Virus record (IMG/VR): IMGVR_UViG_2675903313_000007 | Origin: a virus | Lineage: Duplodnaviria; Heunggongvirae; Uroviricota; Caudoviricetes | Reading direction: 5' to 3' (one strand) | Length of the DNA stretch: 7,518 nt | Shown here: positions 1-7,518 of the stretch, one piece after another | Position numbering within the stretch: the stretch's first letter is position 1 | Layout: every line of letters begins with the position of its first letter | Made by a program: the position numbers and the translations under genes | The notes under the pieces: generated by a model | The model's database searches: none | What the model saw: the letters and a program-made list of their open reading frames with translations, nothing else | Told to the model about the DNA's origin: nothing

Positions 1-434
1 GCAATATGCTCACTGGCTACCTGCATCAGGTTGTTTTTTGTTTCTTCCGCCTCCCGGATCCGGAACAGTTTTTCTGCTTCTGCATCTTTCACCCAGGCTG
101 TGCCGTTCCACTTCTGAAACTCCCCTTCCGGCGATAACCAGGTAACATTTTCCGGTAACGGACCGAGTTCAGAAATAAATAACGCGTCCCCTGATGCCAC
201 GTCATAAACTGTTTTACCCCGATGGTCTTCAACAAGATGCCACGATGCCTCATCACTGTTGAAAACAGCCACGAAGCCTGCCGGAATATCTGGCGGTGCA
301 ATATCGGTACTGTTTGCTGGCAGACCTGTATGAGGCGGAATATATGCGTCACCTTCACCAATAAATTCATTAGTTCCGGCCAGCAGATTATAAATTTTTA
401 TGGTCCGTGCTTGTTCACTCATTCTGAATGCCAT
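1..434 (-). CDS. tfa: Tail fiber assembly protein Tfa, 5' partial (N-terminal 144 codons; 3' end lies beyond window position 1)
   Basis: Not in the ORF track because it has no stop inside the window. My own minus-strand translation from the ATG at 434..432 gives [144 protein letters not shown]..., with no stop through position 1. This matches the N-terminus of lambda Tfa as I recall it. The start overlaps the stf stop by 1 nt (TAATG), which is typical translational coupling. Confidence 0.85.
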
Positions 435-3133
435 TATGCAAGCCTCACAATATAGTTAAATGCGATGTTTTTGACGGTGTTTTCCGCGTTACCAGCAGCG
501 TTAACGGTGATGGTGTGTCCATGTGAACCAATCGCAACGGAGTGCGTATGAGCACCAATACCGACAGTATGTGCATGTGCGCCTGCGCTTGCAGCAGTGC
601 CGGACAGCGAGTGGGTATGAGCACCATCTGATGATGTCTTCCCTGCATTACGAGTCTGGCCACTACCGCTTGTTGTGCTCATAATCCCCGCGCTTGGATT
701 TGAAATCGCGGTATAACCATTAGGGAAAATGCTCGTGTTCGTGCCACCAAATGCACCGGAACTCTTGTGTTGGTGCGCACCGGCACTATTTGCAGTCCCG
801 CTAATACTATGGGTATGCGCCCCGGTGTTATTCGTGGATTTGGTTCCGTAATCAAACGACGATGTGTTTTTCGTCCCCAAATCCGTACTGGATGCGCTGG
901 CGCTGTGGGTGTGCGATTTAATGCCGTCCTGTTCCTGAGACAATACGGCTCGACCACTGGCGGGTTTGCCCTTAATCGTCCAGCCACGCATATCAGGGAT
1001 CACGCCTGACGGATAAGCGGCTGCAAGTTTCGGGTATGCAGATTTGTCAAAAGTCTGCCCCTGCATCAGGGCATAGCCAGACGGAACGGTATCTGATGGC
1101 CACGGGATTGGTGCGCCAGGCGGATAAAACTGCTCTGATGGCGTATAGAGTGAATAAACTGTACCGTCCGTTAACCCTTCCGGCTTATTAGCAGAATATG
1201 CTGGTGACGTATGAATCGTCACGCTGGCATTACTGGTATAATCCCATTGAATATTTACACCAGTCGCATAATTTCCGATTGCAACGTAAATATCGTAAGT
1301 ATCACCAGATGTATTGACCCAGGCAAAATTTGTAAACCCTGTCGATGTGCGCTGCCATAAAGCACCAGTAATCCCCTTCGGATTACCATTACCTGCACGC
1401 AAAACAAGTTCAGATATACCTGCCTGTTGAGGTGAACCGACGTTAAATCCAGCGCCACCAATCAACGTAATTGAAACAACAGAACTCGCCTGTGGCATGG
1501 TTACCGTTGCTAATTTGAACCAACCAGCACCACCGCTGAATGACATTGTTGTTGAGTTAAGCGTACCAATATCTTTCGGCGTCAGTGTTATATCCTCCGA
1601 AAGCGCCTTACCATTCACCTTACGGTCAGAAGGTACCCGATCATTCGCATTGTCATTCGCTGCTTTAACTGCCTTCGGTGTCGCGGCAAGCGTTTCAGAC
1701 GTACTGTTGGTCGCACTGCTGAGCTGTACTATCCCCTTTTTCGTCGTGCTCGCATCCTCAAGCGCCACGGCGGATGCAATATCCTCTGCCCGTTTTGCCG
1801 CTGTCTCAGCGCGCGTTGCTGCGGATTCTGCCGTACTTTTGCTCTGTGCTGCCGCTGTCGCACTGCCAGCAGCCTCTGTCGCCTTTGTGGATGCCGTCGT
1901 GGCGCTGCTCTTCGCTGCTGACGCCTGTCTGGTCGCCTCATCTTTTGAAGCAGACGCCGATGATGCCGATGACGCCGCCGAACTGGCGGACGATGCCGCT
2001 GCCGTTTTTGAGGATTCTGCGCTGGTTTCCGACGCTTTCGCGTTCGTTTCGGATGTCTTCGCTGAGGAAGCAGACCTCGCTGCTGCGCTGGCCTGTTCAG
2101 TGGCTTCGCCAGTCTTCGTTGTGGCTGTTGAAGCGGATGATGCGGCGCTTTCTGCCGATTTTCCGGCGGCGGTGGCACTGACTGAGGCCTGCCCGGCACT
2201 TATTGATGCGGCACTGGCGGACGACGCAGCCGCTGTTTTTGAATCTGCCGCAGCTGAGGCGCTCTGTCCCGCTGCTGTTTCAGAAGACTTAGCGTTCGTC
2301 TCGGACGTTTTTGCCGCCTTCGCGGAATTTCCTGCCGCCGTTGCCGAGGAAGCTGCACTACTGGCACTTGATGATGCATTCGTTTCTGAAGATTTCGCTG
2401 CCTCTTTTGAGGCCGCCGCACCCCGTGCCGAGGTGGCAGCTTCTGACGCCTTCGTGGTCGCTGTGGATGCAGAAGTGGCTGCCGATTTTTGTGATGCTGC
2501 GGCATTCGTTTCTGACGTTTTCGCGGCACTGGCGCTGGTAGCTGCCGCGCTTTTTGATGACTCTGCAGCAGCAGCACTTTTTGCTGCTTCACGGGCCTTT
2601 GTCGATGCCGTTCCTGCGCTGGAAGACGCTGACTGAGCCGACGACGCGGCCTGTCCGGCTGACGTGCTGGCGGCACGTGATGAGGCTGCAGCATCGGTTG
2701 CATGAGTTGCCGCCTCGCTGGCTGATGCACTGGCATCGCTGGCTGATTTTTTCGCGGCTGCCGTATTCTGTGCAACCGCGGAGGCGTTACGTGACACCTC
2801 TTCTACCATCTGCTCAAAGCGGCGCAGTGCCTCCGGTCGGACATCATCCTCCGTCATGGCACCGAGAAAATCATTCAGCGTACCTGGTCTGGAACCTTCA
2901 TAGACGGTAATGGTCCCGGCATGTGAAGGCGGAAAACCTTCAACCAGCAGGGTGACGCTGTACTGACCATGCTCAACATCCATGCTGTAACGTCCGGCTT
3001 CATCCGGATTTTCAGAGGCCACCGTGTTCACCACCACCGTGCTGCTGGTTCGTCTGGCCTTCAGCACAATGGTGCAGTTCTGTACTGGTTTTCCTGTGCC
3101 ATCTTTAAGCACGCCAGAAATTTTTACTGTCAT
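434..3133 (-). CDS. stf: Side tail fiber protein Stf (899 aa, intact)
   Basis: ORF track 434..3133 minus, coordinates including the stop. The N-terminus [28 protein letters not shown]...[25 protein letters not shown] closely resembles lambda Stf, as does the C-terminus (GAPIPWPSD...[31 protein letters not shown]...[31 protein letters not shown]), which carries repeated G-[AS]-H-x-H motifs. An SD-like GGTGGA sits 6 nt upstream of the ATG on the minus strand. Confidence 0.92.
1769..2776 (-). repeat. Ala/Ser/Thr-rich low-complexity shaft-coding region of stf, with dispersed near-identical 22-26 nt motifs encoding (A)AK(T/S)SETNA
   Basis: Stf residues ~120-455 are almost entirely A/S/T/K/E. The motif occurs four times on the plus strand at 2039..2060, 2292..2317, 2396..2418 and 2503..2528, all encoding K(T/S)SETNA on the minus strand. 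Boundaries are approximate. Confidence 0.6.
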
Positions 3134-3144
3134 ACTTTTCCACC

Positions 3145-3180
3145 AATAAAAAAAGCCCGCAGCAGTGACGCCACGGGCTT
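3145..3180 (-). terminator. Candidate rho-independent terminator between lom and stf
   Basis: Read on the minus strand: AAGCCCG-(14 nt loop)-CGGGCTT, with the core GC stem at 3155..3159 paired to 3174..3178, immediately followed by TTTTTTTATT (plus-strand A-run 3145..3154). It ends about 12 nt upstream of the stf ATG. The loop is large, so confidence is moderate. Confidence 0.5.
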
Positions 3181-3284
3181 CAGGACAGTGTAACTTTACG
3201 TTTCCTCAAACGCAGTTCACCCCATAAGGTGGATGAACCTGCGTATCATAACAATATTTACAGAAGATAAATCGGCGTCTGTTG

Positions 3285-3884
3285 TCAGAAACGGTATCCG
3301 ATACCAACAATAAATGCATCCGTTCGCCAGTCGCCACTACCGGAACCTTCATAAGCAAGGTCAATGGTCACGGATTCGGTCGGGTTAAACTGCACGCCAG
3401 CCCCCCACGCCAGAGACGTGTTGCTGTGGCGACCGTCATCACTTCCGGTCAGCACATCGTGCGTTTTCCCCTTGTTGTCAGTTACGCGGAGATAATCCCC
3501 GGAGAAAGTCGACACACGGCTGTAAGCCACACCCGCCATCGCATACGCGCTGAACCATTCATTCACGCGTACAGACGGCCCCGCCATCACGCTGAACCAG
3601 CGGTTACGCACGGAATCTTCATGCCAGCGGGTATCGCTGTAGCGCGTTTTTTGCTCATCCTCAGCATTGGCATAACTGAAGGACGTAATCAGCCCCAGCG
3701 CGTCCGTAAACTCATAACGGTATTTCACGTTAATCCCGTTCAGATCATCACTACCGGGAACGTTCGTCGAGGCATGGAGATACCCCGCGCTCAGCGTGGA
3801 CTGATGTTCTGCTGCACTCGCTGGCGTAGCAGCGGCGACCTGCCAGACTACTGCGGACAAAATAACAGCACATAATTTACGCAT
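3285..3884 (-). CDS. lom: Outer membrane protein Lom (Ail/Lom/PagC/OmpX family, 199 aa) with N-terminal signal peptide
   Basis: ORF track 3285..3884 minus. The product begins MRKLCAVILSAVVWQVAAATPASA (signal-peptide-like) and ends AYEGSGSGDWRTDAFIVGIGYRF, with a C-terminal aromatic residue typical of beta-barrel outer-membrane proteins. Internal blocks (GINVKYRYE, SVMAGP, SAYAMAGVA) match lambda Lom as I recall it. An SD-like GAGAGG sits 5 nt upstream of the ATG. Position between J and stf is the same as in lambda. Confidence 0.92.
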   Translation of the reverse strand: MRKLCAVILSAVVWQVAAATPASAAEHQSTLSAGYLHASTNVPGSDDLNGINVKYRYEFTDALGLITSFSYANAEDEQKTRYSDTRWHEDSVRNRWFSVMAGPSVRVNEWFSAYAMAGVAYSRVSTFSGDYLRVTDNKGKTHDVLTGSDDGRHSNTSLAWGAGVQFNPTESVTIDLAYEGSGSGDWRTDAFIVGIGYRF

Positions 3885-3905
3885 AATTACCTCTCGCTTT
3901 TCTGC

Positions 3906-3932
3906 AATAAAAAAGGCGCCATTTCTGGCGCC
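3906..3932 (-). terminator. Candidate rho-independent terminator between J and lom
   Basis: Read on the minus strand: GGCGCCA-GAAA-TGGCGCC, a perfect 7-bp GC-rich stem with a GNRA-type tetraloop (plus 3915..3932), immediately followed by TTTTTTATT (plus 3906..3914). It lies 20 nt downstream of the J stop and ends about 21 nt upstream of the lom ATG. Confidence 0.65.
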
Positions 3933-3951
3933 CGTATCTGGGTTATAAAAT

Positions 3952-6900
3952 TCAGCTAATCGTGATGCCTGCAGTGGCTTTCTTCATCACCACAACCAGC
4001 AAATCGCTGATACTTGCTGTGGGATACCAGTTATTTACCAGCCATGCTGACACCGAAAACTCCAGTGTCATGTGACCGTGACCGGCAGGCATATCAATAA
4101 CACCACTGTAAATCAGCGTATTATCCAGCGCGGTACGGTTATAAATTTCAGCACCGTTTTTCCGCACTATCAGACGGCATGAGGAGTAAATATCAGTATG
4201 CTCTTTCTCATGTTTAGCGCCGCTGAATGCCACCGCCGGAATAACAATCTGCCGGTCAAACGGCTGATCGTCATAAACCCTGACGGTAATGGTTCCTGAT
4301 GGCCACCGCTCCGGTGCACGGGAGTCCCGGGGGAAAGCTTTGCCCACTGTTTTAACGAGATCGCCTTCAATCTGGTTCGCGGACAATTTTCCCAGAACCC
4401 GACAGTTCTCGTTAATCGTGACGTTGTTGAGCGTCCCGGAGTTCGCATTCACGTTACCGCTGATATCGGCATTTTTCGCCGTCAGCCGCCCGTCCGGTGT
4501 CAGGGAAAATGCCGGAGGATTACCGCCGCTGGTAATGGTGGGAGCCGTCAGATATTTCAGGAACACTTCATTCATAAATATCTGATCGCCCTGACCAACA
4601 AACATCGGCTTTGTGTTGCCATTCGCAGGATTAATCATCGCAATCCTGTCTGCCGCCAGCAGCACCTGACTCTGCATTCCTGCTGGCGTATTCTCAATAC
4701 CGGCACCGATACCCGCAATATAAAGGCGTCCGTCCTGCATCTGCTGCAGTTTCACGGCCCACATGCTGTTCAGGTTATTATTTGTATCAACCTGAACTTT
4801 CTGTATCTGCTGGATTGCCGCACTCTGATTTTCCAGTTTTTTATTGACGGTCTGCGTGATTTCATTGCTGACATTCGTAATGGACGTCCTGATTTCAGCC
4901 AGGTCCGGCGCAAGCTGACCGTTATCAATCTGCGTCCACAGCTCCTGGGCCAGATGTGTTTTCCCGATTTCTCCTTTGAAAAAATCCAGGTAACCTTCCG
5001 CATCATCGCTCGCCCGACCGACAGCCTCCACGAATGCCGATTTGCCAACAGTATTCACACTGCGGATATAAAAATAATAATCATGGCCCGGTTTGATATT
5101 GATACTGGCAGCTATCCAGTACAACGCCGAGCCAAGATAGCGGGCTGCGGTTTCAACCTGCCTGATATCCGCAATCCGCTTTTCCGAGAACCAGAACTCA
5201 AACTGTACCGTCGGGTCATAAACGGCAAGATGTGGCGTTGCGGTTATCTGAAAATAGCCCGGCGTCAGCTCAATCCGCGACGGTGCTGCCGGTGCGGCAA
5301 TCCGGAAGGTGGTGGTGGCAGGTTCACCCTGCTGGCCATAGCTGTTTATCGCCCGCACCGTCAGGGTGTATTCCCCGAGCGGCAGACCACTGAAACGATG
5401 CTCTGTATCCGCAGTGATAGCGGTGGTCACCAGACGGCTGTCTTCTCCGCTTCCGCTGGTCAGTCGCAGACTGAAGCGCACCCCCTTCACCACCCGCGGC
5501 GTGTCCCATTTCGCCTGTGCCAGATACTGGCCGTCAGCTGCGCTCACCTCCACCGTCAGGTGCTGCACTGCCGGTGGGATGACGCTGTTCAGGGAGCCTG
5601 ACTGCGGCTCAAAGCGGGCACCGTTATCCACGATGGCTTCTTTTTCCGGTACGTGCTGCACCGCCGTGATGGCAAAGGTGCCGTCCGTGTTTTCCCGGAC
5701 GGAGACACAGCGGAACAGGCGACGGCGCAGTGACGGCAGGGAGAGTCCCCACACCCCGTATGTCTCCACACCATCAGGCAGGGTACTGACCTGTATCCGG
5801 TCCGGCGCGGGGTGTGCGGTGATGTCCACACTCACCGGCTTACCGCTGCCGTTAATCAGGTTCACCGCCGATGTACCTGTCTCCGGCAGGGTAACCTCAC
5901 GGTCCAGCGTCAGGGTGCGGGTGGCAGCATCAATGGACAGGACACGTCCGCCGGTCATAGTCCCGGCATAGTCGTTATCACAGATTTCAATAATGTCACC
6001 CGGTGTGTGACGCAGCCCCTGTGACCCGAGCGTGAAGTCCACCGTCTGCGTTTCCAGCAGTCCGGTCTTTATCACCCACAGACCTGCACGGTGAGCCTGA
6101 CCGCGGCTGGTACAGCCAAACGCATCCATCTTCAGCAGATTGCGCCCGTAGCGCAGTATGGCTTCCGGGTCTTCCACCAGTTCCGTGGAGGTCTGCCAGC
6201 CGTTCTGCGGGTCGGTGTAATTCACCTCCACCGCCGTGTGCCGGTCCTTCAGGGCACTGAAGCTGTAGCGGAACCCCACGCCGTTATCATCCACCACCAC
6301 ATCGCTGTTGGTGTACGGCCACACCACATCCGACGGGCGGTCCTGAACGAACGTCAGCGTCTGACCGTTCCATACCGGCATACAGCGCATCGCAGAGCAG
6401 AAATCACTGAGAACGTCCCACGCCTTACGCTGTTGTGCCAGGTACGCATTAAAGGTCATCCGCGGCTCGGTCCCCCCGAAACCATCCGGGACCGTCTGGT
6501 CGCAGTACTGCCCGATGGCATACAGCGCCCACTTGTCCACATCCGCCGCCCCCAGACGTTTTCCCATGCCGTAGCGCGGGTGAGTCAGCATGTCCCACAG
6601 GCACCAGGCCGGGTTGTTGCTGTATGCCGGTTTCAGACTGCCGTCCCAGATACCACTGTACGTGCGTTTTTCCGGGTCATAGTTTGACGGCACCTGGATG
6701 ATGCGACCGCGGATATGGTAGTTCACCGTCATCTGCTGGCCGCCGAACTGCTCCGCATCCACCTGCAGCCCCACAATGGCCGTGTTCGGGTAGCACTGTT
6801 TCACATCGATGATTTCGGTGTATGACGACCACAGCGTCTTATTCTGCAGCTGGTCCGTGGTGCTGTCCGCTGTCTCCCGGACCATCCGGATGTTAAAAGG

Positions 6901-7425
6901 ACGGGGAGGCAGATTATCCAGAATCACCGACGCCAGAAACTGCGAGGTGGTCTTGCCGTTAATGGTGACATCCTTTTCTGTCACCCAGTTACCGTTACGC
7001 TGTAACTGAATCAGCAGGCGGACGGATGTCGGGTTTCGGTCACCCTTTGACGTGGTCTGCACCAGTGACTGCACCCCGAAGGTAACCCGCAGGCGGTCAA
7101 TGTTCGCGGACGTAATGGTGCGCGTCACCGGTTTTGCCTTCGTCACTTCCACGCCCAGTCCGGTTTCAGCACCGGAGGACTCAAAGCCTTCCGGTGGTGT
7201 CTGCTCCTGCTCCCCGGCGCGCCAGACCGCGGTCACACCGTGTATCACGGGATTACCGTCCGTGTCCGTCAGCGGGGTTTTGTTCACCAGAATACTCTGC
7301 AGGCCTTTCACCGGGCCTTCTATCGGTCCCTCACCAACCGCATCAATCACGCTCATCATCTGCGTGGATTTGAGATTATCCTTCGCCTCGCGCGGTGTGT
7401 GCGCCCTGCCGCCGCCTTTGCCCAT
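3952..7425 (-). CDS. J: Central tail fiber / host specificity protein J (tail tip protein, 1157 aa)
   Basis: ORF track 3952..7425 minus. The N-terminus [39 protein letters not shown] is near-identical to lambda gpJ, and long internal stretches match it as I recall it (e.g. [54 protein letters not shown] and [38 protein letters not shown]). An SD-like GGGGAAGG sits 4 nt upstream of the ATG. Confidence 0.95.
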
Positions 7426-7445
7426 ACAGCCTTCCCCTGAATAAA

Positions 7446-7518
7446 TTAACCGCCACTTGCCATTCCGTACAGAAGTCGGATATCCTTCGCCCGAAAAGCA
7501 TGAAACACATTTCTGCCA
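7446..7518 (-). CDS. I: 3' end of the upstream tail gene, probably tail assembly protein I (C-terminal 23 codons plus stop; 5' end beyond the window)
   Basis: My minus-strand translation in the frame ending at the TAA (plus 7446..7448) gives ...[23 protein letters not shown]. This is an open frame from the window edge that ends 20 nt before the J ATG, the position gene I occupies in lambdoid phages. The fragment is too short to confirm identity from sequence alone. Confidence 0.45.

Follow-up and report, generated by a model that had tools for sequence, protein, structure and literature searches.

Does the outer-membrane protein gene lom, lying in the late tail operon of this phage with a hairpin on either side, form a transcription unit set apart from its neighbours, and is it expressed in the prophage? 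The DNA analysed here, called the window, is a stretch of 7,518 nucleotides from the virus record IMGVR_UViG_2675903313_000007. Its minus strand holds the last part of a tail operon of lambdoid type, in the order J, lom, stf, and close relatives are found among E. coli prophages and Stx phages. Three genes make up this part of the operon:

J, 3952..7425, minus strand: tail tip and host specificity protein of 1157 aa (open reading frame list; Pfam GpJ domains FNIII-A_GpJ, Ig_J, Phage-tail_3 and Ig_GpJ_C)
lom, 3285..3884, minus strand: Ail/Lom outer-membrane beta-barrel protein of 199 aa (Pfam PF06316, Ail_Lom, E = 9e-125, full length)
stf-like side tail fibre gene, 434..3133, minus strand: 899 aa (Pfam phage_tail_N, 4.7e-70, and Collar)

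Scanned in full against Rfam (E <= 1), the window returned a truncated IS009 match at 1..91 and two weak isrG matches within stf.

Late operons of this kind are switched on by Q antitermination (PMC2629481). In the literature lom is treated as an accessory gene (PMC3594210, PMC7067206), and a moron is described as a gene with its own promoter and terminator that is expressed from the repressed prophage (PMC3594210). The operon segment has only two intergenic gaps, J/lom and lom/stf, and in each the gene strand carries a hairpin that leads into a T-run:

Hairpin A, 3909..3933, minus strand: predicted intrinsic terminator between J and lom, with an 8-bp stem, a GAAA tetraloop and T6 (folding, terminator score and covariation)
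Hairpin B, 3148..3181, minus strand: predicted intrinsic terminator between lom and stf, with a 12-13 bp stem, a 6-nt loop and T7, 14 nt before the stf ATG

In hairpin A, the 5' arm (3933..3926, GGGCGCCA) and the 3' arm (3921..3914, TGGCGCCT) enclose the GAAA loop (3925..3922), and six of the eight pairs are G-C. The T6 run occupies 3914..3909, its first T doubling as the last base of the 3' arm, where it is paired to G3933. The stem of hairpin B spans 3181..3152 around a loop at 3169..3164 and contains seven G-C pairs; its T7 run lies at 3154..3148, and the first three T of this run close the stem. Both structures are stable on folding. The minimum free energy of hairpin A is -15.7 kcal/mol, a value equalled in none of 200 shuffles, and hairpin B folds at -24.3 kcal/mol in context, with a single shuffle of 200 equally good.

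We then scored terminators with our own implementation of a d'Aubenton-Carafa-type score that uses modern energy parameters. Hairpin A reached d = +34 to +42 and hairpin B d = +18 to +44. Across both strands of the window A and B were the only positive-scoring terminator sites (about +34 to +44), the next best standing at -20. On the opposite strand no T-run follows the stem of either A or B, and both elements are therefore unidirectional and co-oriented with the genes. The initial annotation had reported a hairpin with a T-run in each of the two gaps, oriented with the genes, at 3906..3932 and 3145..3180, and had proposed folding and terminator prediction as checks; both came out in its favour, the coordinates were right to within 1-2 nt, and the identities it had given to J, lom and stf agree with the Pfam matches. 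Thus A and B have the structure of canonical intrinsic terminators, and their anatomy and conservation support regarding them as putative terminators. A full-text literature search with the hairpin sequences returned no matching papers, and neither a published description of these particular hairpins nor transcript ends at the locus were found in the literature searched.

The comparison with relatives covered about 220 lom loci gathered from viral and genome collections, whose flanks were compared; every J-stf locus in this sample was retrieved through lom. Upstream of lom there are 22 distinct hairpin sequences, each followed by 4-6 T. Within the allele group of the window the upstream stem appears as GGGCGCC/GGCGCC, GGGCGTC/GACGCC and GGGCACC/GGTGCC, along with G-U intermediates and a flipped loop. 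The relatives of hairpin A carry GGGCGTCA/TGACGCC and GGGCACCA/TGGTGCC, with a G-U intermediate, as against GGGCGCCA/TGGCGCCT in the window. Among 20 distinct sequences, 95.6% of cells were paired, compared with 36-59% when the partners were slid. Compensatory double changes occur at three of the eight pairs, and the observed covariation score was reached by none of 500 shuffles. The stem of hairpin A is kept by compensatory substitutions.

Beyond this allele group, both positions hold hairpins of differing sequence in lambda and in other lom alleles with 43-50% protein identity. The upstream hairpin is CGTCCG-GGAA-CGGGCG in lambda, and in a lom allele 45% identical in protein it is GGGCACCU-CAGG-AGGUGCCU (also written GGGCACCT-CAGG-AGGTGCCT). 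Downstream of lom we found three unrelated terminator sequences, namely type II (the window), type I (lambda and most relatives) and that of phi24B. The type I hairpin is AGCCCGCC-GGTTCA-GGCGGGCT followed by T6, with some stem variants among type I alleles, and in type I and type II alike 12-15 nt separate the end of the terminator from the stf ATG. Because hairpins of different sequence stand at both junctions across alleles including lambda, the bracket of two terminator hairpins is a conserved architecture of J-lom-stf modules, not a peculiarity of the prophage studied here, and the arrangement is maintained by selection across divergent modules, lambda included.

The lom gene of phi24B lies in a different genomic context. 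After it stands a hairpin with a U-run, the third of the downstream terminator sequences. This lom does not follow J, and its upstream spacer is AT-rich and without a hairpin, which fits the reading that hairpin A would be part of the J-lom junction rather than of lom. Two other observations from the survey were discarded. A copy of hairpin A after a terminase gene (L002), considered as a sign that the hairpin travels with lom, proved to be a single deletion in a degraded prophage with fused reading frames. In a scan of genome contigs for distant Lom contexts, most of the 42%-identity matches in unrelated taxa were low-coverage contamination with lambda DNA.

Could the two structures be chance inverted repeats with no function? 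Weak terminator-like sites are common, and a simple scan finds 13 of them in the window where shuffles lead one to expect 7.7. A and B nevertheless stand far above the other sites and are placed exactly in the only two gaps, and their positions are conserved with different sequences. As the compensatory changes in hairpin A and the terminator scores also contradict it, we regard this reading as extremely improbable.

Taken together, the sequence comparisons point to A and B as Rho-independent terminators that probably make lom a delimited cassette at the tail end of the lambdoid late operon. By analogy with lambda, a Q-modified polymerase coming from pR' during lytic growth would ignore both hairpins, and J, lom, stf and tfa would all be transcribed. 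In the prophage, without Q, hairpin A would stop stray transcription leaving J, and hairpin B would end any lom transcript before stf. According to the moron model, an accessory gene with terminators can be tolerated in an essential operon because the antiterminated polymerase reads through them and the unmodified polymerase stops. Read-through and insulation, both proposed in the initial annotation, are taken here solely from lambda biology, the window itself holding no Q, qut or pR'.

The expected behaviour of the Q-modified polymerase also bears on a second explanation, in which the hairpins would not terminate transcription but would chiefly be barriers to 3'-to-5' exonucleases, or processing landmarks, in the long antiterminated late mRNA, determining how stable and how abundant the J, lom and stf-tfa segments are relative to one another. 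Since a Q-modified polymerase would not terminate, any benefit of the hairpins in the lytic phase must be post-transcriptional. The two stems have high stability, and most counterparts of hairpin A in other alleles share with it a tetraloop of the GNRA type (GAAA, GGAA), although some alleles differ. In lambda, a stable sense hairpin without a good U-run lies right after the highly expressed gene E (7163..7180), which suggests that stabiliser hairpins exist in the late operon. A barrier of this type does not need a U-run, yet in every allele and at both positions 4-8 T directly follow the stem, which is the defining feature of a terminator. As the chief function, exonuclease protection therefore seems unlikely to us; as an additional function of the two hairpins it is plausible.

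A short stretch separates hairpin A from the lom gene:

lom leader, 3885..3908, minus strand: 24 nt with the Shine-Dalgarno sequence GAGAGG at 3895..3890 (sequence and promoter scans)

This leader is nearly invariant in relatives and holds only the GAGAGG between the T-run and the ATG. About 20 nt had been allowed for it at the outset, close to the 24 nt found (3908..3885), and the initial report that no sigma-70 promoter fits between the upstream terminator and the lom ATG was confirmed. Indeed, consensus and position-weight scans for sigma-70-type promoters found no -35/-10 pair in 3908..3885 or nearby, and the consensus scan found no minus-strand promoter in the whole window. The best minus-strand position-weight match lies 266 nt upstream, within J, with nothing usable near the leader. 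A promoter that uses another sigma factor or needs an activator may nevertheless be present. A mapped lom promoter, transcription start site or 3' end was not found in the literature searched, and one paper describes knowledge of the lom promoter as scant (PMC2147009).

Hairpin A could instead belong to an element in the lom 5' UTR, acting either as a 5' stabiliser or as the tip of a larger fold in which UAUAACCC, conserved upstream of it, pairs with the Shine-Dalgarno region, so that lom would be poorly translated from read-through mRNA. The minimum free energy structure of 3960..3880 does pair ACCC with the Shine-Dalgarno region around hairpin A, and two divergent allele groups share a TTAT(A/T)AACCC motif between the J stop codon and the hairpin. 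However, this extended fold is weak (z = -1.98, with 6 of 200 shuffles equally good), its pairing is mismatched, and lambda lacks the motif. A transcript from upstream of hairpin A would, moreover, meet the full terminator. We therefore consider such an element very unlikely.

What does the prophage express? Prophage PP6 of EPEC strain E2348/69 carries hairpin A, leader and 3' spacer identical to those of the window; the module lies at 1469950-1470800 of NC_011601, and the spacer allele has the E2348/69 coordinates 1470637-1470787. In published RNA-seq data for this strain, the DESeq2 baseMean was 2.0 for lom (E2348C_1438), 15 for J and 7 for stf (PMC8550237 Table S2); the value of 2.0 is that of the sheet for the activating condition, and counts may be too low because reads map to several lom paralogues. 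Per kilobase, the counts over J, lom and stf are flat and near background. In one strain whose flanks are identical, lom is thus nearly silent; the data do not speak for expression of this allele from the prophage, and they weaken the initial premise that lom is a conversion gene which the prophage expresses.

These results also bear on how far lom resembles a classical moron. A factor-independent terminator of its own stands downstream, in the form of the predicted hairpin B. A promoter of its own, active in the repressed prophage, was not seen, there being no sigma-70-like site and a baseMean of 2.0. Nor does lom deviate in base composition, its GC content of 0.548 lying between the 0.567 of J and the 0.543 of stf. 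Two classical features of a moron, its own promoter and a distinct GC content, are thus missing, which counts against the cassette view. If J is not transcribed in the prophage, the selective benefit of hairpin A as an insulator would also be doubtful.

The gap that holds hairpin B contains further conserved structure:

lom-stf spacer, 3134..3284, minus strand: 151 nt, type II allele (lambda and most relatives have an unrelated 64-nt type I)
Extended -10-like motif TGTTATGAT, 3245..3253, minus strand: divergent alleles have a perfect TGGTATAAT at the same place
Spacer stem-loop 1, 3210..3244, minus strand: a stem of about 13 bp interrupted by one bulge, which divergent alleles preserve by G-U wobble changes
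Linker, 3182..3209, minus strand: nearly unchanged from allele to allele, with partial pairing predicted (alignment and identity profile)

The initial annotation, which described hairpin B, had overlooked this spacer allele. Of 5426 complete E. coli genomes, 1640 (about 30%), O157:H7 and EPEC among them, contain the type II spacer at an identity of at least 90%, in no case with an annotation. VT1-Sakai carries a type I spacer, and the type II allele was not located in Sakai. Divergent type II alleles adjoin lom genes that are only about 45-50% identical to that of the window, with linker and terminator almost unchanged. Positions 3228..3139 are 90-97% identical among alleles, compared with 40-80% for the flanking lom and stf coding DNA, and form the best-conserved part of 1.1 kb. 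For hairpin B, no compensatory changes were found among the six variants compared, the stem being invariant in type II alleles. Such high sequence conservation suggests that hairpin B may have a role beyond simple termination.

In one such role, hairpin B would chiefly form the 3' end of a small regulatory RNA, some 95 nt long (roughly 3240..3148), and termination of lom there would be a by-product. This RNA would either start at an extended -10 promoter of its own within the spacer downstream of lom or be processed out of the lom 3' UTR. We offer this as a tentative reading with the odds against it. The -10-like TGTTATGAT precedes stem-loop 1 by 5-7 nt, and four divergent alleles (L159, L160, L162 and L199) carry the perfect TGGTATAAT; L161, however, has a poor -10, and about three one-mismatch matches to an extended -10 are expected by chance in the window. 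A 5' stem-loop, a linker and a terminator with U7 make up the typical anatomy of an Hfq-binding module, the U7 after hairpin B supplying the long U-run and the almost invariant linker a seed-like stretch. The 100-nt unit of the spacer folds at -42.5 kcal/mol (z = -4.66, none of 200 shuffles as good), but stem-loop 1 shows no compensatory pairs among six variants, and the high conservation of 3228..3139 could reflect recent recombination. There is no conserved open reading frame; a small one in the spacer was rejected because the frame differs between alleles.

Within this prophage family, spacers of the tail region house other small RNAs, such as PasB. The identical element in E2348/69 is nevertheless missing from the EPEC Hfq RIL-seq data, in which PasB, 4 kb away, is abundant: Tables S5 and S6, which cover two growth conditions, list no UTR or intergenic region of E2348C_1438/E2348C_1439 (PMC8550237). 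The supplement of Tree et al. 2014 has no lom or tail-fibre entries, and Rfam 15 covariance models gave no match at E <= 1 over 3134..3284 or 3885..3951. That the type II spacer (3284..3134) encodes an unannotated small RNA of about 95 nt, whose terminator was co-opted for lom, is thus a possibility to which we give a low probability on these sequence features. It is compatible with the terminator explanation and does not exclude it.

To conclude, the two-terminator layout is real but ordinary, as in lambda, and the less expected feature of the locus is the conserved, small-RNA-like stretch that holds hairpin B. The layout offers comparative sequence support for the textbook idea that an antiterminated polymerase ignores the terminators of accessory genes in essential late operons, and that the same terminators keep these genes separate from their neighbours in the prophage. 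As lom here has no recognisable promoter, a strong predicted terminator upstream and near silence in one transcriptome with identical flanks, caution is advisable before every prophage lom is treated as a virulence factor expressed by the lysogen. Were the small-RNA reading true, a widespread prophage-borne regulator would be added to E. coli pathovars, and what selection favours in the type II allele could be this RNA and not Lom.

Several known systems resemble parts of this locus. The prophage small RNAs PasA-D, AgvB and AsxR of EPEC and EHEC (PMC8550237, PMC4104026, bioRxiv 10.64898/2026.05.13.724894) are likewise short intergenic units with a terminator stem-loop and a long U-run. Unlike them, the lom-stf element, a candidate by its sequence, is reported neither as a small RNA nor as a RIL-seq partner. 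In EPEC PP6, a prophage of the same type, PasB lies in the I-J spacer, some 4 kb away from an identical lom-stf spacer. As the identity of our spacer element it was rejected, since the probe sequence is absent from the window and the I-J spacer lies beyond the window end. The microRNA-size RNA 24B_1 of phi24B (PMC4426718) is also non-coding and lies in a spacer after a lom gene. It too was considered and set aside, coming from a different spacer on the opposite strand, next to a different lom allele in a non-J context; a search of the window for its 20 nt, TAACGTTAAGTTGACTCGGG, allowing up to 3 mismatches, found nothing.

Lambdoid morons (the concept of Juhala et al. 2000; PMC3594210) share with lom the position of an accessory gene in a late operon closed by a factor-independent terminator. 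Unlike the usual morons, the lom of the window has no promoter of its own that we could find, a GC content like that of its neighbours, and a second terminator upstream.

The closest parallel is lambda itself, whose J-lom-orf401 (stf) region (NC_001416, 18903..19650) resembles the window in gene order and in having a hairpin and T-run at both junctions, at 18920..18935 followed by TTTTATTAT and at 19612..19633 followed by TTTTTT. The lom leader of lambda also matches that of the window in length and in its GAGAGG Shine-Dalgarno sequence. The two loci differ in detail: lambda Lom is only 43% identical to that of the window, the stem sequences are different, and lambda's counterpart of hairpin A is weaker (6 bp, d = +9). 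In lambda the -10-like TATTAT/TATAAA overlap the T-run, where the window has TATTGC, and between lom and stf lambda has the 64-nt type I spacer, which lacks the additional stem-loop and the linker found in the 151 nt of the window. Even so, the lom-orf401 hairpin was the top sense-strand match in the 20-kb late region of lambda, and the J-lom hairpin was also listed.

Hairpin A, the intrinsic terminator between J and lom, differs in one relative (L176), where the loop and its closing pair are inverted, reading CCATTTCTGG in place of CCAGAAATGG, while the rest of the stem is the same. This variant looks like a hairpin-loop inversion event. Downstream of lom, the type I (lambda-like, 64-nt) spacers carry a perfect palindrome, TAACAC-A-GTGTTA, just 5' of the type I terminator (for example at 896..908 of the lambda lom locus, L001), and this palindrome is kept in nearly all type I alleles. 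As its loop is too short for an RNA hairpin, the palindrome may be a protein-binding site.

phi24B (L244, HM208303) has a 7-bp hairpin with a U-run after it at 977..1000, approximately 25 nt past the lom stop codon. The paper on 24B_1, the microRNA-size RNA reported downstream of phi24B lom, stated that a Rho-independent terminator was not predictable in the region after this gene (PMC4426718). In the lambda late region (L242), the sense strand carries a stable hairpin at 7163..7180, directly 3' of the major capsid gene E; this hairpin has a UUCG loop but no proper U-run, and may stabilise the mRNA.

Further features of the window lie on the plus strand, antisense to stf, and at the window start:

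1234..1242, plus strand: extended -10 motif that matches the consensus perfectly, TGGTATAAT, antisense within the stf coding region
1497..2636, plus strand: long antisense ORF of 379 aa, from the ORF list
1..91, minus strand: partial match to IS009 (Rfam RF02111), covering model positions 1-91 of 199 at 90.9 bits and E = 2.8e-20

The IS009 match is partial because the window edge is reached at model position 91 of 199. According to the ORF list and Rfam scan of the window, it sits just 3' of a small ORF (370..89), which itself follows stf. IS009 and IsrG matches are reported to be typical neighbours of PasB, an Hfq-dependent prophage small RNA (2026 preprint). The J-lom-stf module is common to the window and the E2348/69 prophage EPEC PP6, in which the spacer between I and J contains PasB in antisense orientation, 153-235 nt upstream of where J starts. 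Since the window covers only 93 nt upstream of J (7426..7518), PasB, if present, would fall just beyond the window end.
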